Assembly: GCA_965247705.1 (NCBI GenBank)
Contig: CBDFHV010000069.1
Span: forward strand, 6,085 to 70,084
Length of the DNA stretch: 64,000 nucleotides
Source of the DNA: Rhodospirillales bacterium
GTDB lineage: Bacteria; Pseudomonadota; Alphaproteobacteria; Rhodospirillales; CAMCUA01
Direction of reading: 5' to 3'
The notes beneath the pieces were generated by a model. The model saw only the letters and a program-made list of their open reading frames with translations. It was not told the origin of the DNA and ran no database searches. The translations under genes were made by a program, and so were the position numbers. This document shows, one piece after another, positions 7,364 through 58,585 of the stretch; the stretch's first letter is position 1; each line of letters begins with the position of its first letter.

Positions 7364-7418
7364 GAGCAATATCCGACCACACGGAACCGAACCAGTTCCG
7401 TGTGGTCGGATATTGCTC
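7364..7418. terminator. perfect 24-bp stem hairpin between convergent genes
   Basis: GAGCAATATCCGACCACACGGAAC (7364-7387), a 7-nt loop, then GTTCCGTGTGGTCGGATATTGCTC (7395-7418). A second hairpin (TAGAGCAGC/GCTGCTCTA, 7285-7349) lies just upstream. Confidence 0.55.
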
Positions 7419-7439
7419 TAACGGTCTAATCGGCTGCCG

Positions 7440-8360
7440 TCAGGACGCGGCGCGGCGCTGACTGGCTTCGACGAGGAGGCCGAAGCGGGTCAGCGCGTCG
7501 CGTATCCGGGCCTCGCCCTCGGGGCTCAGTCGCTCGACCGGTTCTCGTGGAAAACCAGCCGGGTATCCCAACATGTTGAGAGCGCCCTTGATCCCGGCGG
7601 GACGCGTATCGACGGCCATCAGGGTGTCGAACACGTGGGAGATGGCCACATGCAGGCGCCACTTCTCCTCTTTCGACAGGCTTGCGTGGCCCATGATCTT
7701 GCGGGCTTCCGGACCCCACAGTTCGGGACCGGTGGACAGGTAACCGTCGGCCCCCATTCCGAGGCCGGGAAGGATCAGGTGGCAGGCGCCCACCAGCACC
7801 GCCATGCGGTCGCCCAGAAGCTCCATAACCCGGGTAATGTGGAAAAAATCGTTGGAGGACTCCTTGAGCGCCACCACCGGCGCCACATCGCAGATGGCGA
7901 CCATCATCTCCGGCGTCAGGCTGATGCCCGTGCGCGCCGGGTTGTTGTAGATCATGACGGGCAGCGGCACCGACTTGGACACCAGTTCGAAGCGCCGGGC
8001 GGCTTCCGAGATCGAAGCGCGCAGGACGTAGCTTTGGGGCTGCAGGCATATGCCGTCGGCGCCGGACTCGGCGGCGATGGTCGCCTGCTTGGTGGCAATG
8101 CGGGCGGTGATGCCGCCGCAGTTGACAAAGACGTTCGCCCGGCCCGCCGACTCCTTCTTGGCGATGCGTGTCACATCGCCCAGCTCGGCACCAGTCAGCG
8201 CCCAGCCCTCCCCATTGTCGCCGGCGACGAGAAAGCCGGCGGCGCCACAGTCCAGGTGCCACCGCAATATGGCCGAGAAAGCGTCGGGCATCAGGTCCCC
8301 GTTCTCGGCGAAAGGGGTCACCGGGGCCACGTACTGCCCGCGAACCACAATGTCTGTCAT
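7440..8360 (-). CDS. dihydrodipicolinate synthase (DapA/NAL) family lyase
   Basis: Part of ORF 7440..8402. The ATG at 8360 is preceded by GAGGA. It has the segments MTDIVVRGQYVAPVTPF and VVALKESS (Schiff-base lysine context). Confidence 0.85.
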   Translation of the reverse strand: MTDIVVRGQYVAPVTPFAENGDLMPDAFSAILRWHLDCGAAGFLVAGDNGEGWALTGAELGDVTRIAKKESAGRANVFVNCGGITARIATKQATIAAESGADGICLQPQSYVLRASISEAARRFELVSKSVPLPVMIYNNPARTGISLTPEMMVAICDVAPVVALKESSNDFFHITRVMELLGDRMAVLVGACHLILPGLGMGADGYLSTGPELWGPEARKIMGHASLSKEEKWRLHVAISHVFDTLMAVDTRPAGIKGALNMLGYPAGFPREPVERLSPEGEARIRDALTRFGLLVEASQRRAAS

Positions 8361-10570: not shown

Positions 10571-11818
10571 TCAATAGGTCATCGCCGCGCCCTTGCCGCG
10601 GGCACCGGTGCGGCGCACCGTCTCGACGGCCTCCTTCAACTGGGCCAGGTACTCGTCGCAGGCCGCCTCGTGGGGCAGGGACAGGCCGATCAGGATGCCC
10701 TTGGGCTGGACCAGGCGGCCGACGAACCAGTCCCTCTCGGTCAGCACATCGGCCACCGCCCCCATGTCGACGGCCGGATCGTGGCTGCTGAAGGTGATGA
10801 TCAGGGAATGGGGCTGGCCGTTGATGTGCAGCCCGTCGATGGCGTTGATGCCGTCCATGTAGCGCTGGCGCATGGTCATCAGCCGGTCGTTGAGCTTCAG
10901 ATAGCCGTCGCGGCCCAGGTAGTTCATCACCGCCCAGGCCCCCGAAATGGAGCCGCCGGGCCGGGAGCTGGCGACATTGGGGTTGGCGAAGCGGCCGACC
11001 GGCCATTCGTCGAACTCGAACGGCTGGTAGCGTTCGAAGTCCGGGTTGCGGTAGAGCACGGTGGAGGTGCCCTTGGCGCAGAACCCGTACTTGTGCAGGT
11101 CCGCCGAGATCGACATCACCCCCGGCACCGTGAAGTCGAAGTCGGGGACGGGATAGCCGAGCTCGCGGCAGAAGGGCGCGGTGTAGCCCGATACACAGGC
11201 ATCCACGTGCAGCCACAGGCCCCGCTCCCGGGCCAGTTCGCTCAGATCCTCGATGGGATCGATCACGCCGTAGGGGAAGCAGACGGCGGAGCCCAGCAGG
11301 GCAATGGTGTCGGGCGAAATGGCCTTGGCCATGGCCTTCACGTCGGCGCGGAAATCCTCCCCCACGGGTACCCGGGTGACCTTCAGGCCCAGGTACTGGC
11401 CGGCCCGGTTGAAGGTGGGGTGGCCCGAGTAGGGAATGACGATCTCGGGCTGGGTCACGTGGGGCAGCTTGTCCCGGGCCCAGTCCCGGGCCGCCTTCAT
11501 GGCGACGAAGATGCTTTCCGACCCGCCCGACGTGATGTGGCCCACGGAGTCCGGACCGCGCAGCAGTTCGGCGCCGAAATCGAGCACCCCGTCCTCCATG
11601 ATCTTCAGGCTCTTGAACGTGCGGCCGGCGCCGCCGCCGTTCTCCTGCATGAACATGGTGTAGCCCTTGATCTGAATGTCGAAGATGTCGTCCCCGCCGT
11701 ACCAGACGTGGAACGGCACCCGCCCACCTCGCCAGTCGGCGTCGTCCTGGCGAAAGGAAGCCATTTCCGTTTCCAGCTCTCCCCAGGTCCGGCCGGATTG
11801 GGGCAAAATGTTGCGCAT
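10571..11818 (-). CDS. PLP-dependent group II decarboxylase / sphingosine-phosphate-lyase-like enzyme
   Basis: Part of ORF 10571..11848. The ATG at 11818 is preceded by GGGAGGA. It has the PLP-lysine segment SISADLHKYG. Confidence 0.8.
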   Translation of the reverse strand: MRNILPQSGRTWGELETEMASFRQDDADWRGGRVPFHVWYGGDDIFDIQIKGYTMFMQENGGGAGRTFKSLKIMEDGVLDFGAELLRGPDSVGHITSGGSESIFVAMKAARDWARDKLPHVTQPEIVIPYSGHPTFNRAGQYLGLKVTRVPVGEDFRADVKAMAKAISPDTIALLGSAVCFPYGVIDPIEDLSELARERGLWLHVDACVSGYTAPFCRELGYPVPDFDFTVPGVMSISADLHKYGFCAKGTSTVLYRNPDFERYQPFEFDEWPVGRFANPNVASSRPGGSISGAWAVMNYLGRDGYLKLNDRLMTMRQRYMDGINAIDGLHINGQPHSLIITFSSHDPAVDMGAVADVLTERDWFVGRLVQPKGILIGLSLPHEAACDEYLAQLKEAVETVRRTGARGKGAAMTY

Positions 11819-11893
11819 CGAGACGTCCTCCCAAGTTCTCAAGACCATGGTGACAGACCCACGTGCCGCAAGCCTATCATCTTTCCGCCGTCA

Positions 11894-12766
11894 TCACCGC
11901 GCCCCGGCGGACACCCGCTCCCGGTGGGCGACGTAGACGCCGGCGGCGAAGATTATGGTGCCGCCGACCCAGGTCCACAGGTCGGGCAACTCGGAAAACA
12001 CCAGGTAGCCGATCATGGTGGCCCACAGCAGCTTGGCGAAATCCAGTGGTACGACGGCACCCACTTCGGCGTGGCGGAAGGCCTGGGCGATGGACCAATG
12101 GCCCAGCGCCCCGGCGGCGCCCAAACCGACAACAAACAGAATTTGCTCCGCACTGGCCGGCTCCCACACGAACAAGGCGGCGAGGAAAGTCACCGGCGTG
12201 GCCACCATGCCCAGGTAGAGGGTGATGGTGAGACTCGATTCCGTGCGCGACAGGGTCTTGATCACCGCCATCGCCCCGCCCCAGGTGGCGGCGCCCAGAA
12301 GGGTCGCCACCTCCCCCCAGCCGGGATCGGCGAAGCCGGGGCGCAAGACGACGAGAGCCCCGGCAAAGCCGACCAGAAGGGCGAGCAGCCGGCGGGTTCG
12401 AAAGGTCTCACCCAGGAACAGGAGCGCCAACACGGACGCGAACAGGGGTGCGCTGAACCCCAGGGCGGCGAAGGTCTCCAACTTGACCCGGCTGAGGCCG
12501 AAGAACATGGCCATCATTGCAAAGGCGGTCAACAGGCCGCGGAGCATGAGCAGCACCGGGCGCTTGGTGCGCAGGGGCGCCAACCCGTAACGGAGAAATG
12601 GCGGCGTCATCACCAGGAAGCCGAACAAGGATCGCAGGAACGCCACCTGAACCGGCGGCAGTTCGCGAGTCACATGGTGAACGCCCGCGTTGAGCACAGT
12701 GAAACTGAGGCCGGCGAGGACCATGTAGGCCATGCCCCGCGGCGTCGATTCCTTCGGAGGGATCAC
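11894..12766 (-). CDS. DMT superfamily (EamA-like) transporter
   Basis: 290-aa polytopic ORF. The GTG start overlaps the selB stop (GTGA at 12763-12766). Confidence 0.8.
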   Translation of the reverse strand: MIPPKESTPRGMAYMVLAGLSFTVLNAGVHHVTRELPPVQVAFLRSLFGFLVMTPPFLRYGLAPLRTKRPVLLMLRGLLTAFAMMAMFFGLSRVKLETFAALGFSAPLFASVLALLFLGETFRTRRLLALLVGFAGALVVLRPGFADPGWGEVATLLGAATWGGAMAVIKTLSRTESSLTITLYLGMVATPVTFLAALFVWEPASAEQILFVVGLGAAGALGHWSIAQAFRHAEVGAVVPLDFAKLLWATMIGYLVFSELPDLWTWVGGTIIFAAGVYVAHRERVSAGAR

Positions 12767-14670
12767 GGGCGGGGGAACATGGATGCCGCCGGGCGGACCA
12801 CTTGCCGCCCGTCGCCCCGGCGTTTGGTGAATCCCTGGGCGTCGAAAAACTCCAGGACCTCGATCGCCAGGTTGCGGCCGATGCCCGTGCGATCGCGGTA
12901 GGCCCGGGCGTCGAACTGGCCGTCGCCGTTCTCTCCCGCCAGGGCCTCGGCCGCCGCCGCCAGGTCGGCCAGGGCGGCGGGCGGGAAGAAACGGTTCTTG
13001 GCCACCCGCTTGAGGAGTCCCTGACCGGCGGCGCGGATCAGGAACCGCTCCACCTCCCCCGGCGGCATGCGCAAGGACTCGGCCAGTTCATGGACCCGCG
13101 CCGCGCGGGTCCCGCCGGCAAGCAGCAGCGGCTGTACCCGGGACCACAGGGATGCGTCGGCCTTGGACAGGGTGGCTTTGCGGCCCGGCGGCCGCACGAA
13201 GCCGCCCGCGCGCTCCACCGCCCCGTCGCCGGCCAGGGACCCGAGGACCGCTTCCAGTTCAACGGGGGAGACATCGGCGCCCAGGGAGGTTCGCAAATCC
13301 CCTTCGGCCAAGCCCCGGCCGTCGTCGCTTGTGTCCGCGTCGACGGCGGCCACCACCCGCTTGCCCAGATCCCGCCAGCGGACCTGGTCGAATCCGCGGG
13401 CGCCGGACCGAACCAGGGGCACGGCGGCGAACAGGGCCGTGGCTTCGTCGGTCGTCAGGTTGCGGGCGCCGGCAAAGGCTTCCAGGTCGACGCCATTCGG
13501 CGACACCGTCAGCAAGCCCGTCAGGGCCGCCACCGGGTCCGCCGCCTCCAGGGCCCGTACCACCGCCAATCGCTGGGGCCGGCGGCGGCCCCGGGCGGGG
13601 GCGAATGGATCGATGACCTGGCCGCCGGCCATGGTGCGCTGGGCCGAACGGTCGCGGAGGATGAAGCGGTCCCCATGACGGGCGCAGGTGGGCTCGTCCA
13701 AGACGATCTGGACCAGGGCTGAGTCCCCGGGCGCGACCCGCCGGCCTTCCAGCAGGGCCACCCTGCCCGTGATGTCGGCGGCGCCCAGATGCACGTGCAC
13801 CGATGTCCAGTGGGACAAGGGCCGCGGCTCGGAGCGCAGGAGCCGCAGCCGGGCGTCGATGCGCCGGGTCCCCTCCCCCGCCGCCGGCGCCACCAGCCAG
13901 TCGCCCCGGCGGACGCGATCCCGCGCCAGGCCCGGCCCGGCGATGTTGAGGGCCAATCGCTGACCGCGGCCGCCCCGATCGGCTGCCCGGTTCTGGGCGT
14001 GGAGCCGGCGGACCCGCGCCTTCAGCCCCCGGGGGCTGAGAAGAACCTCGTCTTCGACCGCCACCGCGCCGGAGAACACCGTGCCGGTGACCACCACGCC
14101 CGCGCCCTTGAGCACGAAGCAGCGGTCGATGGCGAGCCGGAACCGGCCCGGCGACGTTCGGTCCTGCCATCGCCGCGCCGCCGCCTCGAGAGCCGTCGAC
14201 AGCGCCGGCACGCCGTCTCCGGTGAGGCCGGAGACGGGGAACAGGGGCGCGCCCTCCAGCACCGTCCCCATGGTGAGGATGTGGATGTCCTCGGTCACTT
14301 CGGCCAACCGCGATGGATCTACCCGGTCGATCTTGGTCAGCGCCACGGCGCCGTCGTCGACGCCGATCAGGTCGAGGATGGCCAGATGCTCCTCGGTCTG
14401 GGGCATGGGGCCGTCGTCGGCGGCGACGATCAAGAGGGCGAAGTCGATCCCGGTGACCCCAGCCACCATGTTGCGCACGAACCGTTCGTGCCCCGGCACG
14501 TCGACGAAACCGATGACCGAACCGTCCGGACCCGGCACGTAGGCGAACCCCAGGTCGATGGTCATTCCGCGCGCCTTCTCCTCCGGCAGGCGGTCAGCGT
14601 CGACCCCGGTCAGGGCTTTCACCAGAAGAGTCTTGCCGTGGTCGATGTGGCCGGCGGTGGCGACGATCAC
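12763..14670 (-). CDS. selB: selenocysteine-specific translation elongation factor
   Basis: 635 aa. It has the G-domain start [22 protein letters not shown]...[17 protein letters not shown] and a long winged-helix C-terminal extension. The GTG start overlaps the selA stop. Confidence 0.93.
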
Positions 14671-16061
14671 GGGCGCAAGTGCTCCAACTGGCCGACGAAG
14701 GCGCTTTCGTCCTCAAGGCAGCGCAAGTCGAACAGCAGCGCCCCATCGGCGATGCGGCCGACCACTGGCACGGGGAGGGAGCGGAACGCCGCCGCCAGCC
14801 GCTTGATGGCCCCGTCGACGCCCCGGCGCGCCAGTGGCCTGAGGGCCAGGCCGGCGCTCTCCAGGCGTTCCATCGGCAGGGAACCGCTGCCCAACTGGCT
14901 GCGGCAGGGAACGACGGCAACGTCGAAGGCCGCCGCCAGCCGTTGGGCCAGGGGGACCGCCAGCCGTTGGGCCAGGGCCTCGATGTCCCCATACGGGCGG
15001 GCCAGCAGGCGGACGGTGGGCAAGCGTTCGGCCAGGCGGTCGGGGTCGGCGTAGAGGCGTAAGACGGCGCCGAGGGCGGCGATGGTCAGCTTGCCGCAGC
15101 GCAAGGCCCGCTTCATGGGATTGCGCTTGAGCCGCTTCACCAGGTCGGCGCGGCCGACGACCACGCCCCCCTGGGGCCCGCCGAGAAGCTTGTCGGTGCT
15201 GAAGGTAACCAGATCGGCGCCGGCGGCAAGCGCCTCCATGGGCGTCGGCTCGTGGGGCAGACCGTAGCGGGCCAGGTCGACCAAGGTGCCGCTGCCCAGG
15301 TCGACCGCGAAGGGCAGGCCGCTGTCGTGGGCGATGCGGGCCAGTTCCGCTTCCGGCACTTCGGCGGTGAAGCCCTCGACCGCGTAGTTGGAGCGGTGGA
15401 CCTTCATCAAGAGCGCGGTGCGGGGGCCGATGGCGTCGGCAAAATCCCGGGCGTGGGTGCGGTTCGTCGTGCCCACCTCCACCAGCCGGCAGCCGGCCCG
15501 GGCCATGATGTCGGGCATGCGGAAAGCGCCGCCGATCTCGATCAACTCGCCCCGGGACACCGGGACCTCGCGGCGGTTGGCCAGGCTGTTGAGCAGCAGC
15601 AACACGGCGGCGGCGTTGTTGTTGACGATGGTCGCCGCCTCGGCCCCGGTCAGGCGGACCAGCAGGTCCTCCACGTGGCTGTCCCGGTCTCCCCGCCGGC
15701 CGGTCGCCAGGTCGTACTCCAGGTTGGCGGCGCCGGCGACGGCGGCGATGGCAGCGACGGCTTCCGGCGGCAGGGGCGCCCGACCCAGGTTGGTATGCAG
15801 CACCGTCCCCGTCAGGTTGATGACCGGCCGCAGGCTCGGTTGGGCGCCGGCCGCCACCAGTTCTTGCGCCCGGGCCGCGATCGCCGCGTTACTTGCCCGG
15901 TCGGTGGCGACGGCCTCTCGGGATTCCGCGATGGCCGCGCGCACCGCCTCGGTGGTCGGCCGGCGGCCGAATTCCCGCACCAGCGCCGCCACCTGCGGCA
16001 GGCGAAGGATTCGATCCACGGACGGCAAGGCGGCGCGGGCCGAGGGGACGGGATCGGGCAT
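14667..16061 (-). CDS. selA: L-seryl-tRNA(Sec) selenium transferase
   Basis: 464 aa. The start [12 protein letters not shown] is SelA-like, and [13 protein letters not shown] is the PLP-lysine segment. Confidence 0.93.
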
Positions 16062-16141
16062 GGGAGAAACCGAAATGGAACGGTTGGCTTTGCGGCGATC
16101 AGCCTATCACGCCCCGTCGCGCTATCTCCAGGGCGACCGGG

Positions 16142-17395
16142 TCAGGCGGGCACCCGTTCCATATAGTCCGCCATCAAACTCTTGATTCGGTCGTCGTTGG
16201 GGACGATTCCGGACAGGCCGAGGAACTTGATATCTTCGTCGGAGTCCTGGCGAAATGCGTGGGCGAGGCGGAACAGCAGGCGGGCGGCGGCGGTTTCCTG
16301 CCAGAACCAGTCGCGCAAGGGGTCGATCGAAATGGTGGTGTCGCGGGCGGTGACGGCTTCCGTATAGAAGGCCTTCAAGTCCTGGAGGGCGAAGCGCACC
16401 GTCTGGTCCATGTCCAGGCCCCGATCCCTGGCCGGCTCGCGGCCCCCTTCCAGCACCGCCTTCAGGAAGGGCGGGATGGCCTCGATGGGGAAGCCGCTGG
16501 GCCCCATGGTGGTGGCCTGACCGGCCGCCAGCCGCCGCTCGAACCAGGGCCGCAGGCGGGCGATCTCGTCCAGGGTCTGTTCGACCAGGTCTGTGATGGT
16601 CCCGTCGCGGCCCGGCGGCGGGCCGAAGGAGACCGGGCAGGACCAGCCTTCCCCCGAATCCTCGTCGTCCCCGGAAGTCTCCGGCGCCTGTTCCGGGAAA
16701 TCGACGATTAGAGGACCGGAGGGCGCCTCCAGCAAGGCCAGGGCCGCGCGGATCACCCGCTTCTGAAACTCCACGGCCCCGGGCGGCCCGATGGGACGGC
16801 CCATTTCGAAGGGAACCCACAGGCTGCGCGGCGGCATCATGCGCTCGGAATGTTCGCGCAGGATGCTGATGATGGTGGTGGGAATGCCTTCCCGTTCGAT
16901 GACTTGGGCCAGCCCGCTCACGGCGCGCGTGCAGTTGGGTCAGACGGGCACCAGGAGAACGGCATCGACCTTCTCCGCCCTCAGCAGGCCGGCCAGTTCG
17001 CGGGCATAAGGCTCCATGAACTCGGGTCCGGTGGCGCCCATGAAGAAATAGTGATGGTTCGCCGCCGCGCCGATCTCGCCGTCCGCCGCCATCTCCCGCA
17101 GCCGGTCGGTGGGAAAGATGACGTTGAGGTCCGCCTGGAAGCCGGTGCGGTCGTAGTTGGTGGAAATGTGGCTCATCACCACGTCGTCGGCGTCCAGCGG
17201 AATCACTCGATAGTCGGCCCCGTTGCGAGCGAAGGGGCGGTCGCCCCGGCGATGAATGCCGGCGCTGGAGATCAGAGCGACCCGGCGCTGGGATACGGGT
17301 TTCCCCAGCGCCCACGGCCGGTCCTCGTAGGTCGGGCACGGCAGCGCCGCCAAGTGGCTGCGCAGGGGTTCCTGGAGATCGCTCAGTCGGACCAT
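16142..17395 (-). CDS. glycine/sarcosine/betaine/D-proline reductase B-type (GRDB family) selenoprotein with Sec at the TGA codon 16940-16942
   Basis: ORFs 16940..17395 and 16142..16921 share one frame and are separated only by a TGA and six sense codons. Read-through gives LLVPV-U-PNCTRAVSGLAQVIEREGIPTT. selA and selB lie immediately downstream. Confidence 0.8.
16906..16939 (-). promoter_or_regulatory. candidate SECIS region downstream of the UGA
   Basis: The mRNA reads UGA CCC AACUG CACG-CGCGC-CGUG AGC GGG CUGGCCC. CACG/CGUG (16931-16919) can pair, extended by CCC/GGG, and an alternative GGGCUGGCCC hairpin exists. Not folded computationally. Confidence 0.35.
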
Positions 17396-17790: not shown

Positions 17791-19533
17791 CCCGCCTTAT
17801 TCACCCAAGGGGCCTGAAATGACTGGCGCGCGGCGGATTTTGACGTAAAATCAATGTGCTAGAAGGATTCACAACAAACCTCCGCCGTGCGCCATGGGTG
17901 AAACGCTATCTCTGTTCGGTTCCTCGTTCAACAAGTCCCTTCGCATCGAATCCCGACCCGAGCGGCTGACCGGGGAACCGGGGGCCGTGCTCTTGCGCGA
18001 GATCATGGAGCGCACCCGGATCATCGAGTGGCTGACCGAGCGGTTGCACGATCCGCGCAAGGCCGATCGTGTCACCTATCCCCTGGCCGATCTGCTGCGC
18101 ACGGTTCTGCTTCTCTTTGGCCAGGGTTGGCACGACCAAGACGACGCCGACGCGCTCCGCCATGATGCGGGCCTACGCCTGGCTGCAAGCGGTTCACGGG
18201 GTGTCACGCCGTTGTCCACCGAGGCGCACCTGGCCTCGCAACCCACGCTGTCGCGTCTGATCGCGCTTCTGAGCACGCCGGAGGCCCGCACTGTGCTCCA
18301 TGAGGCGATCACCGAGCTCGCGGGGCGGCGGTTCCGGGGCCTGCGCGGCGGTCACCGGCAGCGATATCTGACCATCGACGTGGACAGCCTGCCGATCGAG
18401 GTCCACGGCCATCAACCCGGCTCGGCCTGGAACGGCCATTACCATCAGCGCATGTACCACCCTTTGGTGGCCAGCATCGCCGAAACCGGCGACCTTCTGG
18501 ACGCTCGTTTACGGGAGGGCAACGCCCACACCGCCGAGGGGGCGCTGGACTTCATCCTTGATCTCGTGGACCGAGCCGAAGAGACGCTGTGCCAAGTCGC
18601 TCTGGTGCGCATCGACGCTGGGTTCCCCAGCGATCCCCTGCTGTCGGGCCTGGAGCGTCGCGGGACGCCCTATGTTGCCCGATTGCGGACCAACAAGGTC
18701 CTGGACCGCATGGCTCAGCCCTGTCTTGGACGGCCGCCGGGACGGCCTCCGGCAGAGCCGCGGACGTGGTTCCACGAGATGACCTGCCGGGCGAAGTCGT
18801 GGTCGAAAGAGCGCCGAGTGGTCCTGGTGGTGTTGGAACGGCCAGACCAATTTCTGGTTGATCACTTCTGGCTGATCACCAGCCTTGATGCCGAGGCCGT
18901 GCCGGCGGCCGATCTCCTGGATCACTACCGCCAGCGCGGCCGTGCCGAGGCCCACATGGGCGAACTCATGGACGTGATGGACCCGGCGCTGTCGTCCGCG
19001 TCGCGAAGGAAGCGTCATTACCGGGGGCGCTGCCTGCCGGAGCGCGAGAGCACGGTCGATGCCTTCGCTCACAACGAGGTCGTCCTGTTGCTCAACATCC
19101 TGGCCTATGAACTGGTTCATGCCGGGCGGTGCCTGATGGAGACTGCGACCGGCGAGGGGTGGAGCCTTCGCCGGTTCCGCGAGCGCGTTCTGCGCGCCGC
19201 CGCCCGGGTCGTCGTTTCCGGCCGACGCATCACCATGGTCATCGGGGAAACATTCGCCCGCTTCTGGCAACGGCTCTGGCCGCGCTTGGAACGCTTGCGA
19301 TACGCCGACCCGTAACCCCGTCCAAGTCGGCCAGCTAGACTTCAAGCCACCGCCGGATCGCCGGTGGCGGTCCCGCTCGCCTCCACGGCGGCTTCTTCAC
19401 GCCTTTCATGCCTCAAGTGGCTATCGCACAGCTGGGGAAGCACCCGTGACTCGCCAGCCGCGAATGACCCTGCAACGAGACTCGCATCACATGCAGAAAA
19501 GTCTACGGCAAGGGGGTTGGTGAATAAGCCGGG
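17791..19533 (+). mobile_element. IS1380-family insertion sequence (copy 1), 1743 bp
   Basis: Left inverted repeat CCCGCCTTATTCACCC (starting 17791). The right end GGTGAATAAGCCGGG (ending 19533) has reverse complement CCCGGCTTATTCACC. A 5-bp direct repeat ATCAA flanks the element at 17786-17790 and 19534-19538. Confidence 0.8.
17894..19315 (+). CDS. IS1380-family DDE transposase
   Basis: 473 aa. The N-terminal SLRIESRPERLTGEPGAVLLREI and the QPTLSRL motif are shared with the second copy. Confidence 0.9.
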   Translation: MGETLSLFGSSFNKSLRIESRPERLTGEPGAVLLREIMERTRIIEWLTERLHDPRKADRVTYPLADLLRTVLLLFGQGWHDQDDADALRHDAGLRLAASGSRGVTPLSTEAHLASQPTLSRLIALLSTPEARTVLHEAITELAGRRFRGLRGGHRQRYLTIDVDSLPIEVHGHQPGSAWNGHYHQRMYHPLVASIAETGDLLDARLREGNAHTAEGALDFILDLVDRAEETLCQVALVRIDAGFPSDPLLSGLERRGTPYVARLRTNKVLDRMAQPCLGRPPGRPPAEPRTWFHEMTCRAKSWSKERRVVLVVLERPDQFLVDHFWLITSLDAEAVPAADLLDHYRQRGRAEAHMGELMDVMDPALSSASRRKRHYRGRCLPERESTVDAFAHNEVVLLLNILAYELVHAGRCLMETATGEGWSLRRFRERVLRAAARVVVSGRRITMVIGETFARFWQRLWPRLERLRYADP

Positions 19534-19645: not shown

Positions 19646-19775
19646 ATGTCTATGCTCAAAATGAACACTGCTGTCGTATCCCCAATTTTCTTACTGGCCG
19701 CTACGCCCGCGTGGGCTGGGGTCACCAGCGTCGTAAATGTGCCGGAGCCGAACATGCTCGGGCTCGTCGTGCTAG
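19646..19775 (+). pseudogene. very small PEP-CTERM-type protein gene, 3' end truncated by IS1380 copy 2
   Basis: MSMLKMNTAVVSPIFLLAATPAWA (signal peptide) followed by GVTSVVN-VPEP-NMLGLVVL. The ORF is cut at the IS boundary before the expected basic tail. Confidence 0.4.
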
Positions 19776-21374
19776 CCCCAATTATTCATGACGGCCATCG
19801 GATTTCAGCGGGACGAGCGGTAGCGACCGGGTTGACGGCGATTTTTGAGACGGATTGTCGGAGAGGTTGGAGGTTGTTGTTCGGGGCTCGTCCGGCGGCA
19901 CCTGCCGCTTGGTTCAGGGCCCTTGGGCGGTGATGCGCCCGGCGATGGCGATCATGGCCGGCTGATAGGGATAGGCCGAAGGCAGGGCGATCCTGAGGCG
20001 CGACTTGAGCTCCTCGACGCGGACGGCGATTTTGAGAAACGCCCGGCGCAGGGTTTCGAAGGTGGCCGTTCGCCACAGCGATTTCCGAGGCGCCGCTTGG
20101 CGAAGCTGATGCAGCAGCCAGTAGGCGCCGGTATGCAGGAAGAGGCGGAACTGGTTGGCCTCCCAACGGTGGCACGACGTGCGGTCGGACTTGGTGTAGA
20201 GCTTGTGGTCCTTGATCATGTTTTCCATCCGCCCGCGGGCGCAGTAGACCTTCTCGTAGAGCGCCTTGGCGCGGCCGCTCAGGTTGGTGACGACGAAGCG
20301 GACGTCACAGCCCTTGGCGGTAGCTTCCACGCGGGCGATGACCGAGCGTTGCCGTGACCAGCTTTTGGCCTGGTAGCCGGTGTGGAAGAAGCGGCGCACC
20401 TTATCCTTTCCCTGCCCCGCCCGGCGCACGGCGGCGTCCTCGCACCACGGCTGGCCGATCCTGTTCAGCCGGGCGTTGCCGGAAAGCCCGAAGATGTAGC
20501 CGCAGCCCTGACGTTCGAGGAATTCCATGGCCTCCGGCGTGGCGTAGTGGCCATCGCCCCGCACGGTGATCTCGACCCGTGGCCAGTTGCGGCGGATGCG
20601 GCCGATGACGTGTCTCAGGATCCGCGCCGCCTCGTCGCCGGAGGGCCGCTTGCCGGGACGCAGCAGTGACATCACCGGCTTGCCGGTGGCCGCCTCGAAG
20701 ATATGGATGGGTTGGAAGCAATAGTCGTCGTAATGGGCGTTGAACAGCGCCAGCTGCTGGCCGCCGTGAACGGCATCGTCGGTGTCGTCGATATCGAGAA
20801 CGATGCGCGCCGGAACGCGCTTGAAGCTGGCGCAAAACAGATCGATCATCGACAGCCCCATGCGCCCGAGCGCGCGCCATGACGGCGCGTTCTCGAGGCG
20901 CGACAGGGTCGGTTGGCTCATCAGGTCGTCGCCGCTCTCGGACAAACGGCCACAGGCCAGCTTGAACGCCGGATCGAAACGCAGAACGTCGAGGTCGTCG
21001 CAATCCTCATACCCGCAGGCAATAGCGAACAGGCGCGCCCGGATCATGTCTACGTAAGCGTGGGTCGTGCTCGCCGGGTCGCGCACGTCGGTGACGCAGG
21101 AAGCGAGCACGTCGGCGATGCCGAGCCGCCTGTCGATCTCGCCCAACAACAACACCCCGCCGTCCGACGACAGCCGTCCGCCGTCGAAGCGGGCGCAAAG
21201 CGGCTTGCCTCCAACGGGTGACAAACCAGGGAGATAGGGGGTAATCTCGTTCATGGTGAGCCGTGGGTTGTTCTGTTGCCATGTGATCTTGTCTTGACAC
21301 CAAAATCATACGGCATTTCAACAGGTTAATCTACGCTCACCAGCATTTTCAATCAGCGCCGTGAATAATTCGGG
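19776..21374 (-). mobile_element. IS1380-family insertion sequence (copy 2), about 1.6 kb
   Basis: The ends are CCCCAATTATTCA (starting 19776) and TGAATAATTCGGG (ending 21374), similar to the copy 1 inverted repeats. The flanks CTAG and TTAG are not an exact duplication. Confidence 0.65.
19914..21254 (-). CDS. IS1380-family DDE transposase
   Basis: 446 aa with the segments GGRLSSDGGVLLLGEIDRRLG, QPTLSRLEN and DIDDTDD. Confidence 0.9.
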   Translation of the reverse strand: MNEITPYLPGLSPVGGKPLCARFDGGRLSSDGGVLLLGEIDRRLGIADVLASCVTDVRDPASTTHAYVDMIRARLFAIACGYEDCDDLDVLRFDPAFKLACGRLSESGDDLMSQPTLSRLENAPSWRALGRMGLSMIDLFCASFKRVPARIVLDIDDTDDAVHGGQQLALFNAHYDDYCFQPIHIFEAATGKPVMSLLRPGKRPSGDEAARILRHVIGRIRRNWPRVEITVRGDGHYATPEAMEFLERQGCGYIFGLSGNARLNRIGQPWCEDAAVRRAGQGKDKVRRFFHTGYQAKSWSRQRSVIARVEATAKGCDVRFVVTNLSGRAKALYEKVYCARGRMENMIKDHKLYTKSDRTSCHRWEANQFRLFLHTGAYWLLHQLRQAAPRKSLWRTATFETLRRAFLKIAVRVEELKSRLRIALPSAYPYQPAMIAIAGRITAQGP

Positions 21375-21847
21375 TTAGCCACGTTATCCCGATATTCTGG
21401 CGCATCCATCGCTTGCATCACAGTGACCCCGACGTCGATTTTACGACCGCCCGGCGGCATCATCCCTTTGAGATACTCATCACGGCACCATTCCTTGCAC
21501 TTGGATTACTGATCTCTGGCGCGCCGCCACTCGCCTTGCTGATCTGGGCGTCATTGGCCGGAACGCTGACCTGGTTTCAGCATGGAAATATTCGCCTTCC
21601 AGACGGGCTCGACCGGGTTTTGAGGCTGTTCTTCGTGACGCCAGCCATGCATCGCGCCCACCATTCGTCGAAGCGGTCGGAAACGGACAGCAATTTCGGT
21701 GCGGTGTTCCCTTGGTGGGATCGTATGATCCGTACGTATTGCGCGGAGCCCGAAGGCGGGCTGACGGGGATGACCCTCGGCCTTGAGCAATTTCGTCGAC
21801 GCGAAGAGCTGTTTCTGCACCGGTTGATCCTTCAACCCTTTGCATAA
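21375..21847 (+). pseudogene. fatty acid hydroxylase / sterol desaturase family gene, 5'-truncated at the IS boundary
   Basis: Only the C-terminal part is present (FWRIHRLHHSDPDVDFTT ... MHRAHHS ... NFGAVFPWWDRMIRTY). The frame opens directly at the IS1380 end. Confidence 0.7.
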
Positions 21848-41283: not shown

Positions 41284-42360
41284 CGTCCCTATCCGGTTAA
41301 AACAGGATCGGCCCAAATGTTCTTGTTATGTTCGCGTAGAGGATGTAGGCTGATCGCATTGTCTCGGGCTTTTGGAGGGCGGTGCGATGGGCAGGATGTT
41401 GGCGTTTCAAGAACGGCACGGATCGGAAGCGGCCTGCATCGAGGCGCTGGCCCGGCTGCGCTGGCCGCAGGGCTATGTCTGTGCCCGCTGCGGCGAACGG
41501 CGGAGCTACCGAATGACGGCGCGGCCCAGGATCTTCGAATGCGCCCGTTGCGGTCATCAGGAATCGGTGACGGCGGGGACGATCTTCCACCGCACCCGCA
41601 CGCCGCTCCGCAAATGGTTCCTGGCGGCGTGGTGGATGGCGCGCGACAAGCGTGGGGTCTCGGCCCTTTTGCTGTCCCGCGAGTTGGATCTGCGCTACGA
41701 GACAGCGTGGCTGATGGCTCATAAGCTGCGTCATGCCCTGACGGAGCGCTCGGAATTTCCGCTCGAGGGCTTGGTCGAGGTCGACGAGAGTTATTATGGC
41801 GGGCGCGGCAAGCCGGAGAGCCGGGGCCGGGGCCTTTCCAACCCGAACAAGAGCCTGTTGGTGATGGCCGTCGAGAAGCGGCCGGTCGGGCCGGGCAAGG
41901 GCATCAAGGGGAGCGGCTTCGTCGCCGGCCGGGCGCGGCTCGCCATCCTCCCGGCGGCCACCGCCCGCGAGCTGGGCGGCTTCGTGCGCGCCTCGGTCAG
42001 GCCCGGAAGCCGCCTCGCCAGCGACGCCTTCAAGGGGTACGCCGGACTCCGCGACACCTATCGCCACCACCCCGTCGTGCAAGGCGAAGGCAAGAATGCC
42101 GAGCGCTTGATGCCGGTCGTCCATGTCCTGTTTTCCAACGTGAAGACCTGGCTCAACGGCACCTATCACGGTGTCGGCGCCAAGCACCTGCCGCGCTATG
42201 CCCGGGAATGGAGCTACCGCTTCAACCGCCGCACACGCATCACCGATCTGGCCGACTTCGTCCTCCGCCGCGCCATGGACCAACCCACCATCACCTACAA
42301 GGAGCTGGTCGACAGTCTTCAACCGCAGGGTGCGCTACCTGCTTTAACCGGATAGGGACG
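41284..42360 (+). mobile_element. IS1595-family insertion sequence, 1077 bp
   Basis: Inverted repeats CGTCCCTATCCGGTTAAAACAGG and CCTGCTTTAACCGGATAGGGACG. An 8-bp direct repeat TCGATCAG flanks the element at 41276-41283 and 42361-42368. Confidence 0.88.
41387..42355 (+). CDS. IS1595-family transposase
   Basis: The ATG at 41387 follows GGAGGG. It has an N-terminal zinc ribbon (CARCGERRSY...CARCGHQES) and a DDE domain. Confidence 0.9.
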   Translation: MGRMLAFQERHGSEAACIEALARLRWPQGYVCARCGERRSYRMTARPRIFECARCGHQESVTAGTIFHRTRTPLRKWFLAAWWMARDKRGVSALLLSRELDLRYETAWLMAHKLRHALTERSEFPLEGLVEVDESYYGGRGKPESRGRGLSNPNKSLLVMAVEKRPVGPGKGIKGSGFVAGRARLAILPAATARELGGFVRASVRPGSRLASDAFKGYAGLRDTYRHHPVVQGEGKNAERLMPVVHVLFSNVKTWLNGTYHGVGAKHLPRYAREWSYRFNRRTRITDLADFVLRRAMDQPTITYKELVDSLQPQGALPALTG

Positions 42361-45092: not shown

Positions 45093-45602
45093 ATGCGGCG
45101 CTGTTTTCTCATCTTCGACTACGACAATGACCTCTCCGACGCGAGGCGAATTGCCCAGACGGGCTTGGTCCGCGCCACGGCGCCGGCGGGATTCGACGAC
45201 ATCGCGGATTGGTCGGCGGCCAAGGAAAAGGGCGTCGACGCGGTAAAACGCATGATCGACCAGGGGATTTCCGGATCTTCCGTTACCGTCGTACTCATCG
45301 GTTCGCGAACGGCCACCCTAGGTTACGTTACCTATGCGCTGGAACGCAGCCTGCGCCGGCACAACGGCGTACTCGGCATCCATATTCACAATTTGAAGGC
45401 CTCCAACGCCACCGACGCGGACCGGGGCCGAAAGCCGGCCCTCCCCGAGGCCGCCGTCCGCTGGGCCGACAGCGACGACTATCCGAGCCACGACTGGGAG
45501 CAATCCCGATTTGCCGAGTGGGTATTCGACGTCGCTACCGACTGGAAGAACTACGCCCGCCGTCGCCCCGCCGACCCCGTACCGCCGGGGTTCAAGCTCT
45601 AG
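45093..45602 (+). CDS. ThsB-type TIR-like domain (DUF1863) protein
   Basis: 169 aa. It has the segments CFLIFDYDND, SVTVVLIGSRTA, YVTYALERS and GVLGIHIHNL, in the order seen in Thoeris ThsB-type TIR proteins. AAGGAGG lies at 45074-45080. Confidence 0.75.
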   Translation: MRRCFLIFDYDNDLSDARRIAQTGLVRATAPAGFDDIADWSAAKEKGVDAVKRMIDQGISGSSVTVVLIGSRTATLGYVTYALERSLRRHNGVLGIHIHNLKASNATDADRGRKPALPEAAVRWADSDDYPSHDWEQSRFAEWVFDVATDWKNYARRRPADPVPPGFKL

Positions 45603-46647: not shown

Positions 46648-47568
46648 ATGCAGACGAGCCCCTTCATGTGCCTCAACGGCGAGATCGTTCCCTACGAGGA
46701 TGCCAAGATCCACGCCTTCGCGGGGGTGGTGAAGTACGGTTGCGCCGTGTTCGAGGGCCTGCGCGGCTATTGGAACCCGGACCACGAGGAAATGTACGTC
46801 TTCCGCATGCGCGAGCATATGGAGCGCCTGCGTTTCGGCATGCGGGTGATGCGCTTCGATACCGTCTACGAGCCCGAACACACGGAAGACTGCCTCATGC
46901 GCATGATCCGGGCCAACGAGCTAAAGGAGGCGGTGCACCTGCGCATGATCGCCTTTCTGGAGGGGGATGACGAACTGGCCATGGCGGGGCCCATCGGTCT
47001 GGTCTGCGGCGCCGTGCCCCGGCCCACCGCCCAACGGGTTTGGGACGGAATCCACGTCATGGTGAGCTCCTATACCCGCATCGCCGACAACGCCATTCCG
47101 CCGCGGGTCAAGAGCTCGTCCAACTACGCCAACAACCGTTTCGCCGAGCTCGAGTCCCGGCGCCACGGCTATGACGGGGTGCTCATGCTGACCGCCCGGG
47201 GAACCGTCTCCGAGGGCTCGGGCGCGTGCCTGTTCATCGTCCGCGACGGCACCCTCATCACCCCCGACGTGACCAGCGGCATCCTGGAGAGCGTAACCCG
47301 CGACTCGGTAATCCGCCTGGCCCGGGAAAAACTGGATCTCCTGGTCGTCGAGCGGGAGATCGACCGGCACGAACTCTACGCGGCGCAGGAAGCCTTCTGG
47401 TGCGGCACCGCCCACGAGGTGACCCCCATCGTGTCGGTCGACCGCATGGACGTGGGCGATGGTGATGTGGGGCCGCTGACCAAATCCATCCGCGACCTCT
47501 ATTTCCAGGTGGTCAAGGGCGAGATTTCCGACTATCCGGAATGGCGCAGTCCCGTCTACGGCGACTGA
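46648..47568 (+). CDS. ilvE: branched-chain amino acid aminotransferase (PLP fold type IV)
   Basis: The ATG at 46648 starts MQTSPFMCLNGEIVPYEDAKIH. It has FEGLRGY, the lysine context RVKSSSNYANN, and TVSEGSGACLF. Confidence 0.8.
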   Translation: MQTSPFMCLNGEIVPYEDAKIHAFAGVVKYGCAVFEGLRGYWNPDHEEMYVFRMREHMERLRFGMRVMRFDTVYEPEHTEDCLMRMIRANELKEAVHLRMIAFLEGDDELAMAGPIGLVCGAVPRPTAQRVWDGIHVMVSSYTRIADNAIPPRVKSSSNYANNRFAELESRRHGYDGVLMLTARGTVSEGSGACLFIVRDGTLITPDVTSGILESVTRDSVIRLAREKLDLLVVEREIDRHELYAAQEAFWCGTAHEVTPIVSVDRMDVGDGDVGPLTKSIRDLYFQVVKGEISDYPEWRSPVYGD

Positions 47569-47586
47569 CCGAATTCGGGGGCGGAC

Positions 47587-49839
47587 GTGCCCTACGCCAC
47601 CTACCGGGTCGACCGCATGGGCGCCGCCCGCATGGTCGGCGAGACCCGCTTCCAGGCCGCCCAGATGGGCAGCCTCGCGGTCGAATACACGGCCGGTCCC
47701 TTCGGGCTTGACGACGGCGGCGCCATCAAACTGGTCTGGCGCGGTTGCTGCGATACGGCCGCGCCCCAGTTCGACGATCCCACGGGCGCCGCCTACGCCA
47801 CCGCGGAGGCCAGCAACGGCGCGCTGCTGGCCTGCGACTACAGCCCGAAAGGCAACTTCCGGCCCTTCTCCAAGGCGGTCATGGTGAGCGTGGTCCAGGG
47901 CTACCTGGCGCCGGGCGATACGATCACCATCCGCATCGGCGATACCCGCTTCGGCGCCCCCGGCATTCGCATGCAGTCGGTGGTGGAAACGGGCCACGAG
48001 ATGAAGGTCCTGGCGGACCCCATCAACACCCGCGACTTCGCCATGCTGCCGGAAACCCTGACCTTCGACATTTTCGCCGCCCCTCGCCGCGACTGGCACG
48101 CCGTCCTGCCGTCCCTGCGCCAGGTGGGTGAGCCCTTCCGCCTGGGCATCCGCATGGACGACGCTTTCGGCAACCCCAGCGACCAGGGCAGCGCCGGCGT
48201 GCGGTTGCGCCCCAGCATTGCCGTCGAGGGCCTGCCGGAAACCATCCAACTGAACGCGGGCGATTTCTCGACCGTGATCGAGGGACTCGTGGTCCGTGCC
48301 CCGGGCGATCTGGTCATCGTCCTCGAGGACGAAATCGGCACGCCGGTCGCGGAGAGCAATCCCTTGAGGATCGTCGACAAGGCCGACTTGCTGCCCTATT
48401 GGGCCGACTTTCACCACCAGAGTCGGGAGACCGTGGGCATGGGCACGGTCGCCGAGAGCTTCGCCTACGCCCGCAACAAGGCTTTCCTCGACGTCACCAG
48501 CCATGCCGGCAACGACCTGTAGATCAGCGGAAAGAACTGGGACGACATCAACCGGGCCAGCGCCGCGTTCAACGAGCCGGGTCGCTTCGTTGTCCTGCCC
48601 GGCTACGAATGGTCGGGGAACACCCCCTTGGGCGGCGACCGCAACGTGATTTTCCTCGGAGAGGGTGCCCCCATGCGCCGCTCGTCGCACGCCCTGGTGC
48701 CGGACCTCGGCGACGCCGATACGGACTGTCACACCATCGAGGACCTGTACCGGGGATTGCGGGAAAGCCCCGTCCCGGCCTTTTGCCTCGCCCACATCGG
48801 CGGCCGCCACTGCGACATCCGCCTCGCCCACGATCCCCTCATCGATCGGTCGGTGGAGATCCAGTCCGCCACCTGGGTCACCTTTGAGTGGGTCCTCAGG
48901 GACGTCTTCGAAAAGGGCTACCGCATGGGCGTGGTCGGCAATACGGACGACCACAAGGGCCGACCGGGGTCGAGCCCGCCGGGGTTCGCCGGCTTCGGCT
49001 GCGCCGGCGGCCTCACCTGCCTGTGGCTGAAGGACCTGTCGCGGGACGGCGTCTGGGACGCCATGACCCACCGCCGCCACTTCGCCACCACCGGCGCCCG
49101 CATCCACCTGGACGTGCGCGCCCGCACCGGCGCGCCCGCCGAGCGGTTTCACGAGGATCCAGCCGCCGGCCCCACGGGCTCGGACATGGTGTCCGAGCTT
49201 GTGATGGGCGACATCGCCCGGGTCACTGAGGCGGAAGTAGAATTCAATCTCGACGTCCTGGCCCCCGCCCCCATCCACCGGATCGAGATTCGCCGTGGCC
49301 TGGAAACGATGGAGGTGTTTCATCCCCACGCGGACCAACCCCGGGGGAACCGAATTCACGTCACCTTCGAGGGCGCCGAGTTCCGCGGCCGCAACCCCAA
49401 GACCCTGTGGGACGGCACGGCGGTGGTCGAAGGCACCACCCTTCAGGCCGCCCACCCCATCCGCTTCGACCTCTTGAGCAAGCGCCTCGAGGTGGAGAGC
49501 CCGTCGACCGTCCGCTGGACCGCCCAGACCACCGGTAATATCGTCGGGCTCGCCCTGACCCTCGCCGGGGCCGGCAACGCCGGCCTCACCGTGGAGACGC
49601 CGCAAGGCACGGAAACGGTCGCCATCGCCGACCTGGGGGTCGAGGAACGGGTGTTCGACTACGGCGGCATCGACAAGCGCATGCGCATCTTCCGCCTGCC
49701 CGACCATAACCCCCACCGCGCCGTAATCCTGTCCCGGCGCGTCCCCTTGCGGGCCGAGGGCGACAACCCGCTCTACGTCTGCGTCACCACCGAAGACGGC
49801 CACCAGGCCTGGTCGAGCCCGATCTATCTGTTCCGGTGA
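47587..49839 (+). pseudogene. DUF3604-like metal-dependent phosphoesterase gene interrupted by one in-frame TAG (48520-48522)
   Basis: ORFs 47587..48522 and 48628..49839 are in the same frame. The sequence reads ...YWADFHHQSRETVG...TSHAGNDL-TAG-ISGKNWDDI...PGYEWSGNTPLGGDRNVIF without a break in similarity. Confidence 0.65.
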
Positions 49840-49899
49840 GGTGGCGCGCGATAGGATACGATGCCTGTCACGAGTGACACTTCGCATGGGAGGAAGACG

Positions 49900-50208
49900 A
49901 TGAAACGGGTGCTGGTGCGCTACAAGGTCAAGCCGGATCGCGTGGCGGAGAACGAGGCGCTGTGCAGGGCGGTTTACGACGAGTTGAAGGGCAAGGCCCC
50001 CACGGGCATCCGCTACATGACCTTCAAGCTGGAGGACGGCGTCTCCTTCGTCCACGTCGCCTCCATCGAGACGGACGACGGCAGCAACCCCATGGCCGGG
50101 ATCGACGCGTTCAAGGCCTTCCAGAAGGATATCGGCGCCCGTTGCGACGAGCCACCCACCGCGACGGAACTGACGGCTGAAGTCGGCTCTTACGGCTTCT
50201 TCGACTGA
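49900..50208 (+). CDS. small ABM/dimeric alpha-beta-barrel-like hypothetical protein
   Basis: The ATG at 49900 is preceded by GGGAGGAAG. 102 aa. Confidence 0.55.
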   Translation: MKRVLVRYKVKPDRVAENEALCRAVYDELKGKAPTGIRYMTFKLEDGVSFVHVASIETDDGSNPMAGIDAFKAFQKDIGARCDEPPTATELTAEVGSYGFFD

Positions 50209-52772: not shown

Positions 52773-52863
52773 CTCCTGCCCCTCGTCGCAACCGACAAGG
52801 GACCATGAGTGGCACAATTTTGCGCCGCCGCGACCGGACCGCCCGGCCGCCTCGCGTGGTGCA

Positions 52864-57545: not shown

Positions 57546-57557
57546 GGTCGCGGAGCC

Positions 57558-58565: not shown

Positions 58566-58585
58566 GATGTCATTCCCTCGCCCCT

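Follow-up and report, generated by a model that had tools for sequence, protein, structure and literature searches.

A PrdB-like selenoprotein gene with an additional helical domain adjacent to selA and selB in a Rhodospirillales bacterium

Introduction

PrdB is the 26-kDa selenoprotein subunit of the clostridial D-proline reductase (Kabisch et al. 1999, as cited in PMC13188914), and substrate activation in the genuine D-proline and glycine reductases takes place on a pyruvoyl group of PrdA or GrdE (PMC13188914). For the superfamily to which these proteins belong, GrdB and D-proline reductase are the only entries in reviews up to 2026 (PMC9312934, PMC13188914). Here we describe a member of this superfamily from a Rhodospirillales bacterium (NCBI GenBank assembly GCA_965247705.1, contig CBDFHV010000069.1, positions 6,085 to 70,084 of the forward strand). 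This stretch of 64,000 nucleotides is called the window, and positions given without a locus name are those of the window. The gene is followed on the same strand by selA and selB, encodes a protein of 417 residues and contains an in-frame UGA codon which is very probably decoded as selenocysteine (Sec).

Under the name 'proline reductase PrdB', a family with the Pfam domain pfam07355 and the motif UxxC is listed by surveys among the most abundant marine selenoprotein families (PMC1088965, PMC2398784, PMC1976440). The survey passages concerned count 42 'PrdB' sequences in the Sargasso Sea (PMC1088965), 235 Sec versus 110 cysteine (Cys) 'PrdB' sequences in GOS (PMC2398784) and, in the Olavius delta-1 symbiont, five 'PR' selenoproteins with no GrdA or GrdB (PMC1976440); one of the loci compared below (L054) comes from this symbiont. 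They give the PrdB name and the D-proline reductase function, and mention neither a missing PrdA nor an extra C-terminal domain. The Pfam domain, the UxxC motif, the marine abundance and the excess of Sec over Cys forms are the same as in the two-domain family described in this work, and the two are very probably one family, being set side by side by description and not by sequence.

The existence of such selenoproteins is therefore already known from surveys since 2005, and the gene of the window is a new member. The preliminary description of the locus, made from the sequence alone, had ranked it as the best candidate in the window for uncharacterised biology. Its novelty was thereby overrated. 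In the literature found, neither the missing PrdA nor the extra domain with its invariant Cys nor the function of the family is discussed.

Results

One reading frame with a single internal UGA

On the minus strand a frame runs from the ATG at 17395 to a TGA stop at 16142-16144, and its sole interruption is the TGA at 16940-16942. A program listing open reading frames (ORFs) returns it in two pieces, 16940..17395 (151 amino acids) and 16142..16921 (259 amino acids), the GTG start of the latter at 16921 lying six sense codons past the internal TGA. Around the Sec position the read-through product is ...LLVPV-U-PNCTRAVSGLAQVIEREGIPTT... The two halves are alike in codon-position composition, with a GC content at third codon positions (GC3) of 0.85 and 0.86, and the N-terminal start MVRLSDL... 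agrees with that of the homologous proteins P0004 and P0005 and of the related loci L007 and L035. As the gene has a TGA as its own terminator, a genome-wide reassignment of TGA is excluded and the code is standard.

A scan of one genome per species gave at least 549 relatives, and the best 80 loci were retained for comparison. They belong to Alpha-, Delta-, Beta- and Gammaproteobacteria, to Dehalococcoidia and to a metagenome-assembled genome (MAG) of Gemmatimonadaceae. TGA is found at the Sec column in all 80 loci, with conserved protein sequence on either side; a simple motif search caught it in 75, and the remaining five, where TGA is also present, differ only at residue 157. We judge this conservation to be far beyond chance. 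The sister strain (L081), which was assembled independently, has a C-terminal fragment 98% identical to that of the window, the same TGA and the same gene order.

When the read-through product was used as query, the matches were mostly C-terminal fragments of 229-267 amino acids, together with three full-length proteins of 413-418 amino acids. The full-length homologues P0003, P0004 and P0005 have Cys at the column of the UGA (...IPTCPHCTRAV..., ...IPVCPNCSRTV...), and a fourth full-length Cys form is P0255 (411 amino acids). The N-terminal 151 residues gave 1,714 matches, the best 120 of which, those listed, were all 151-153 amino acids long with the same end point. Past the UGA the coding constraint continues in the same frame, with conserved residues out to position 399. 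The match to the PrdB profile (residues 30-223, see below) spans the UGA, so that neither half is a complete domain.

The two ORFs are one gene encoding a 417-residue selenocysteine protein. This is what the preliminary description had proposed, from coordinates which all proved correct, and the alignment which it suggested, to see whether U or C occupies the column, gave TGA in all 80 loci and Cys in the four full-length proteins. Taken together, these comparisons make it close to certain that the gene is a genuine Sec-decoded member of a PrdB-like family.

A further protein, P0258 (368 amino acids, JGI), lacks the segment around the Sec column, ...HYSFMG being followed directly by CTRAVCAL... 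This gap reflects either a gene model that skips the UGA region or a real deletion.

The SECIS element

In the model of the bacterial Sec insertion sequence (SECIS) a stem-loop lies just 3' of the UGA, its apical loop being some 16-37 nt distant and containing a G. The hairpin of the present family fits this model in the position of its loop. In the family register the stem of the window is CG.CGC[CGUGA]GCG.CG; the apical loop begins about 18 nt past the UGA, and most members have G-U at the loop start (family loop GUN, window CGUGA). The lower stem, pairing 16931-16933 with 16907-16909, is imperfect in the window. The motif common to the loci is UGA CCN NNN UGY ACG CGC GCC GUN GGC GSG CUN. 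No Rfam family matched anywhere in the window at the gathering threshold, and none matched around the locus at E <= 1.

Evidence for the element is comparative. Synonymous-site entropy was calculated from a codon alignment of 79 genes at the third position of four-fold codons. It is 0.39, 0.17, 0.46 and 0.45 bits at the stem codons 156, 157, 158 and 160, versus a gene-wide mean of 1.53 bits; values are higher at the loop codon 159 (1.28 bits) and at the flanking codons 153 and 162 (1.56 and 1.65 bits). A first covariation count in 68 close sequences was weak, the stem being almost invariant among them. Compensatory changes are found in the divergent loci, namely A27-U31 together with U22-A36 in L059, C23-G35 together with A22-U36 in L065, G22-C36 in L035 and U22-A36 in L047, and some of those in divergent loci alter amino acids too. 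With five divergent loci added, double changes occur at four of the seven stem pairs (11 cells). The covariation score is then 0.115 versus 0.060 +/- 0.008 for shuffles, none of 500 being as high, and slid registers reach at most 0.042. Synonymous constraint and compensatory changes are strong indications that the hairpin right after the UGA behaves as a SECIS element should.

Locus L082 is a Cys form, with TGT at the Sec column. At the position equivalent to the SECIS (about 2252-2283 of that locus) a 5-bp hairpin is still present (CCGCA/UGCGG); it is weak (-6 kcal/mol, not significant) and may be a relic of a Sec-containing ancestor.

Relationship to PrdB and GrdB

Among the models of NCBIfam the best match is PrdB (TIGR04483), with residues 30-223 aligned to profile positions 23-219 of 238 (E 4e-30). 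The match reaches 104.9 bits, one third of the 300 bits set as the PrdB equivalog cutoff, and in NCBIfam release 20 no model reaches its cutoff for the 417-residue protein. The models for GrdB, GrdF and GrdH (TIGR01917, NF040794 and NF040795) score 45.0, 52.8 and 55.1 bits versus cutoffs of 602.2, 800 and 775, and the subfamily model TIGR01918 scores 50.3 versus 65.45. The Pfam model GRDB (PF07355) is matched above its gathering cutoff, with 35.4 versus 22 bits (E 9.7e-9), by residues 32-149 on profile positions 221-345 of 347, and a precomputed PF07355 assignment is present on N-terminal fragments. The membership in the GrdB/PrdB superfamily proposed in the preliminary description is thus confirmed by the profile search it called for. 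Of the GRDB-like core that it described, the superfamily match stands, while the domain resembles PrdB over its whole length and GrdB in its C-terminal part only.

The likeness to PrdB consists in homology over nearly the whole PrdB length, in the position of Sec inside the homologous stretch as part of U-x-x-C, and in the use of a UGA with a SECIS for decoding. Unlike PrdB, the present protein ends in an additional helical domain of about 170-190 residues, in which one Cys is invariant; no gene for a PrdA pyruvoyl proprotein or PrdC is found nearby, and the carriers of the two-domain family are marine and sediment Proteobacteria and Dehalococcoidia, whereas the hosts of PrdB are Stickland-fermenting Firmicutes. 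With GrdB, GrdF and GrdH (PF07355) it has the Sec-containing core in common. The N-terminal residues of GrdB, about 220, are absent here, neither grdA, grdE, grdC, grdD nor trxAB is present in the window, and the motif is U-x-x-C in place of the U-x-x-C-x-x-C described for GrdB (PMC13188914). The protein has neither the full-length GrdB architecture of about 430 amino acids, as the match to the GRDB profile is confined to its C-terminal third, nor the single-domain layout of PrdB with about 240 residues. Pfam scans of approximately 50 ORFs of the window found no PrdA, GrdA, GrdC/D/E, thioredoxin or thioredoxin reductase, in agreement with the earlier view of a stand-alone gene.

A genuine PrdB subunit of D-proline reductase, whose PrdA partner would be encoded elsewhere, might be deduced from the fact that TIGR04483 is the best match and spans the Sec, from the same U-x-x-C, and from the name 'D-proline reductase (dithiol) PrdB' given by JGI to many N-terminal fragments. 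Against it, the score lies far under the equivalog cutoff; no PrdA-like gene is present in the window or recurrent in 76 related loci, the extra domain is missing from the 238-position PrdB model, and the hosts, marine Alphaproteobacteria and Dehalococcoidia MAGs, are not Stickland fermenters. We therefore give this explanation very little credence. Most probably the protein is neither a true PrdB nor a true GrdB, and on the profile and alignment data we class it as a member of a distinct, widespread two-domain subfamily within the GrdB/PrdB superfamily.

The C-terminal domain and the conserved residues

Residues from about 250 to 417 have no match in Pfam. A phmmer search with residues 240-417, exhaustive over 1.84 billion representatives, found 404 proteins, of which the best 150 are listed. 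Nearly all of these 150 have at most 260 amino acids with the domain at about 85-240, that is, they are what gene callers leave of the protein past the UGA. One clear full-length Cys form among them, P0255, has the domain at its C-terminus, and no second architecture for the domain occurs among the best 150 of the 404 matches.

The AlphaFold2 model of the Cys homologue P0003 (predicted local distance difference test, pLDDT, 87.4; predicted template modelling score, pTM, 0.85) has two domains, one alpha/beta (about 35-235) and one helical (about 266-412), and the Cys standing in for Sec is placed where a beta-strand ends and a helix begins. Residues 240-417 of the window protein, modelled on their own (pLDDT 90.7), form an extended segment followed by seven helices. 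In a Foldseek comparison with the PDB the whole P0003 model matched nothing at E <= 1e-3, the hits being generic alpha/beta sandwiches with a template modelling (TM) score of at most 0.25, and for the C-terminal domain the best E was 0.76 with TM at most 0.26. No structural analogy can therefore be claimed. A sequence search of the PDB gave no relevant match (E 0.058 for a de novo design), so there is no detectable PrdB or GrdB relative with a solved structure. The preliminary description had stated that the part following the core matches no recognised family; this applies to the whole region of about 170-190 residues, for which neither a Pfam family nor a PDB fold was found.

U152, C155 and C253 are invariant across 79 members. 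Polar residues conserved to at least 95% in the same set are H76, S78, N80, D82, R83, H115, Y116, R157, R190, R200, E277, D339, Y344 and E346. R157 lies inside the codons constrained by the SECIS and is nevertheless kept in the Cys forms, and is therefore constrained at the protein level. C253, the candidate relay or resolving cysteine, is also kept in the Cys forms P0004, P0005 and P0255. C20 is present in 65 of the 79 members; a self-processing pyruvoyl group at this residue was considered and set aside on account of that distribution.

Sec machinery and surroundings in the window

The start of selA (16061) lies 80 nt past the stop of the selenoprotein gene on the same strand, as had been noted before. 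The end of selA and the start of selB share 4 nt, and both genes are intact. A terminator scan found no terminator-like site between the selenoprotein gene and selA/selB, and the three genes are probably co-transcribed. Coordinates of these and of the other features are collected in Table 1.

Table 1. Features of the selenoprotein locus and its surroundings (window positions)
Feature	Position	Strand	Remarks
Complete coding sequence, PrdB-like selenoprotein	16142..17395	-	417 residues plus TGA stop; residue 152 predicted to be Sec
UGA, predicted Sec codon (U152)	16940..16942	-	first residue of the U-P-N-C redox motif; TGA in 80/80 loci, Cys in full-length homologues
Putative SECIS element	16907..16933	-	synonymous-site constraint and covariation; core stem-loop 16912-16928 (alignment columns 21-37)
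PrdB-like alpha/beta domain, containing Sec	16727..17308	-	residues 30-223; NCBIfam TIGR04483, Pfam GRDB, AlphaFold2 model of P0003
Family-specific C-terminal region	16145..16648	-	residues ~250-417; extended segment with W-x-C-P-V, then seven-helix domain
Cys155, thiol partner in U-x-x-C	16931..16933	-	invariant in 79/79 aligned members
Cys253 in W-x-C-P-V, candidate relay/resolving cysteine	16637..16639	-	invariant in 79/79 Sec forms
selA, L-seryl-tRNA(Sec) selenium transferase	14667..16061	-	TIGR00474 559.6 bits vs cutoff 267.9; Pfam SelA E 5.5e-154
selB, Sec-specific elongation factor	12763..14670	-	TIGR00475 413.2 bits vs cutoff 242.25; SelB beta-barrel and winged-helix domains
EamA/DMT transporter	11894..12766	-	follows selB
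Group-II pyridoxal phosphate (PLP) decarboxylase	10571..11848	-	MfnA model 218 bits, under its cutoff of 299
Insertion sequence (IS) element	17791..19533	+	DDE_Tnp_1_4 transposase 17894-19315; inverted repeats 17791-17805/19519-19533
Second IS copy, same family	19771..21379		transposase 19914-21254 (-); inverted repeats 19771-19793/21357-21379

The GC content is 0.71-0.73 across the selA-selB segment (12000-17000) versus 0.62-0.66 on either side, and the first IS copy, 395 bp before the start codon of the selenoprotein gene, marks the boundary of the locus. High GC and flanking IS elements suggest that the selenoprotein-selA-selB block may be an acquired island. In the sister strain the IS elements found here are others and more numerous, and the place is apparently an insertion hot spot bordering the sel block. 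The EamA transporter and the PLP decarboxylase downstream of selB are retained in the sister strain. The 80 related loci yielded a single EamA-family match (L007, 37% identity) and no match to the decarboxylase.

The neighbourhoods of related loci

All ORFs within about 7 kb were clustered for 76 loci. If the gene and the shadow ORFs antisense to it are set aside, no neighbour is common to more than 11 of the 76, and no PrdA, GrdA, GrdE or other grd/prd gene is among the recurrent neighbours. Those that recur are a MerR-HTH/MEDS regulator downstream in 11 deltaproteobacterial loci, a CoA-transferase III upstream and a D-2-hydroxyacid dehydrogenase downstream in eight loci of marine Rhodospirillaceae, quinone oxidoreductase, enoyl-CoA hydratase and acyl-CoA synthetase genes in another alphaproteobacterial group, MurJ in six loci, and a fusion of a VTT/DedA domain with a pyridine-nucleotide-disulfide oxidoreductase beside the gene in several. 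An assignment of function from the gene neighbourhood was rejected, as the neighbours are clade-specific, include no conserved partner and point in no single direction.

The single feature that recurs in different clades is linkage to the Sec machinery. In eight of the 80 loci selB is present within 8 kb of the gene, and in six selA. A tRNA-Sec gene is found within the same distance in seven of 60 loci (L007 7784-7877, L010 837-931, L027, L040, L042, L043 and L047), which makes tRNA-Sec seven of the nine tRNA genes detected in these 60; in two of the seven, L007 and L010, it immediately precedes the gene, and the order in L007 is selA-selB-selC-gene. In the next-closest relative, GCA_041443065.1, the gene stands together with TetR, DUF2852, selD, selB, selA and a split UGSC selenoprotein.

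The last of these consists of two adjacent short ORFs beside selA (7394-7915), both matching Pfam UGSC (PF24696), and probably represents a further selenoprotein which the gene caller has divided at its UGA.

That the gene travels with selA, selB, selC and selD could mean that its product is a selenium- or sulfur-handling protein or a general thiol oxidoreductase tied to the Sec trait, e.g. for selenium delivery or detoxification, and not a substrate-cleaving reductase. DedA proteins have been associated with the uptake of selenite or with resistance to it, and VTT/DedA-domain neighbours occur in L082 and several deltaproteobacterial loci. Physical linkage to sel genes or tRNA-Sec is seen in at least nine lineages. 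However, about 90% of the loci have no sel linkage, and client selenoprotein genes of other families, e.g. fdhA, are also often linked to sel genes. The motif U-x-x-C is typical of thiol oxidoreductases, and the survey passages place 'PrdB' among the thiol-dependent redox selenoproteins (PMC1088965); the large conserved set of polar, pocket-like residues and the homology to substrate-specific reductase subunits favour an enzyme over a carrier. A handling or delivery role appears improbable to us on this balance, though less so than a genuine PrdB.

In several alphaproteobacterial genomes a tandem second PrdB-like selenoprotein gene is present about 1.2 kb downstream of the first, with its own UGA and a hairpin of different sequence; the TGA of the second copy is at 9689 in L002, 9689 in L009, 9691 in L014 and 6192 in L039. 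The family gene was also found on a contig labelled Nitrosopumilus sp., an archaeon (L065, JABMOR010000145.1, 2.6 kb), which is probably mis-binned, given its length and its similarity to bacterial loci.

Other features of the window

The whole window is rich in IS elements, and includes an IS1595-type transposase (41372-42355, plus strand) and a Mu-like transposase with rve and Mu transposase C-terminal domains (51270-52817, minus strand). A ThsB-like TIR-domain protein is encoded at 45093-45602 on the plus strand (Pfam ThsB_TIR, E 1.5e-11), between a creatininase-family gene and unannotated ORFs; it could belong to a Thoeris-type defence system. Two long ORFs at 46921-50055 (minus strand, 1044 amino acids) and 56820-58598 (plus strand, 592 amino acids) have a GC content of 0.89-0.90 at first (GC1) and 0.66-0.67 at third codon positions and no Pfam match, and may be low-complexity proteins or non-genes.

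Discussion

The explanation that we favour, and hold with good though not full confidence, is that of one intact Sec-decoded gene whose product belongs to a two-domain subfamily, is not a PrdB or GrdB subunit and most likely works without a pyruvoyl partner. On this view the UGA at 16940-16942 is decoded by means of the SECIS hairpin, which starts about 11 nt downstream and is read by SelB, with Sec-tRNA supplied through SelA. For the catalytic action we can offer a speculative scheme. The selenolate of Sec152, at the start of a helix after a beta-strand and beside the conserved R157, would act as nucleophile on a small substrate held by the invariant polar cluster of H76, S78, N80, D82, R83, H115, Y116, R190 and R200. 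C155 would resolve the adduct to a selenenyl-sulfide, and re-reduction would take place via C253 and/or a cellular thiol system. If no pyruvoyl partner takes part, the substrate may need no carbonyl activation, or the polar cluster and the extra domain may do the binding. Taken as a complete catalytic cycle, these steps are more doubtful than probable.

Several points weigh against the explanation given above. The hairpin of the window carries a G.G mismatch, which about half of the family has as well, and a 5-nt loop. In folding energy it does not surpass dinucleotide shuffles (z = +0.94 for 86 nt and +0.84 for 38 nt), and in RNAfold the minimum free energy structure of the window sequence alone prefers a neighbouring register. 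selC and selD are absent from the 64-kb window by ARAGORN, Rfam at two thresholds, a tRNA-Sec profile and Pfam on the approximately 50 ORFs. A partner subunit may be encoded elsewhere in the genome, and the IS elements 395 bp upstream could have disturbed the native promoter. In the Cys form P0003 a Ser replaces C253. The mechanism, finally, is extrapolated from the U-x-x-C motif and the published chemistry of PrdB and GrdB (PMC13188914).

As regards selC, seven related tRNA-Sec sequences were also used as queries for the gene or a remnant of it in the window; the blastn matches listed were chance matches of 11-15 nt, and an nhmmer profile found nothing. As regards the hairpin, single-sequence folding is uninformative in this case, since GC-rich shuffles fold as well or better. 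The folding check proposed in the preliminary description accordingly did not separate the hairpin from shuffles, and it is the comparative constraint and covariation that speak for a SECIS.

One might take the lack of a significant hairpin in single-sequence folding, the lack of selC and selD in the window and the splitting of the locus by gene callers everywhere as signs that the TGA is a true stop, separating two genes or marking a pseudogene of a formerly Cys-containing gene. Such a stop would have to be present in 80 of 80 species in the midst of a PrdB-like domain, with both flanks in frame and under protein-level constraint, followed by a stretch with the synonymous constraint and covariation of a SECIS and adjoined by selA and selB, and a pseudogene would not retain one specific stop codon across several phyla. 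By the comparative data this possibility is effectively refuted, and we assign it next to no probability.

Beyond the Sec-decoded two-domain protein itself, a wider proposal can be made, which we regard as possible but somewhat less likely to be right than wrong. The family would be not a proline reductase but a self-contained selenoenzyme with its own chemistry, needing no pyruvoyl subunit and relying on a redox triad of U152, C155 and C253 and on the new helical domain. The retention of selABCD in some Alphaproteobacteria, and their movement as an island, would then chiefly serve this protein.

For annotation the consequence is that an abundant selenoprotein family is systematically misnamed. 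It is cut at the UGA into a stub of 151-153 amino acids, called 'PrdB' or 'selenoprotein B', and an unnamed ORF of about 230-260 amino acids; in public records the N-terminal stubs bear the names 'D-proline reductase (dithiol) PrdB' or 'selenoprotein B glycine/betaine/sarcosine/D-proline reductase' (e.g. HER63263.1, HID57845.1). The borrowed name implies a D-proline reductase of the Stickland type, which the evidence presented here does not support. The locus is also a clean example of how synonymous-site constraint and covariation validate a bacterial SECIS where thermodynamics cannot. Aerobic marine Alphaproteobacteria, sulfate reducers and Dehalococcoidia are among the carriers of the family, and Sec forms greatly outnumber Cys forms. 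That the gene is repeatedly linked to selA, selB, selC and selD suggests that the protein is part of the reason why the Sec trait is retained in some lineages.

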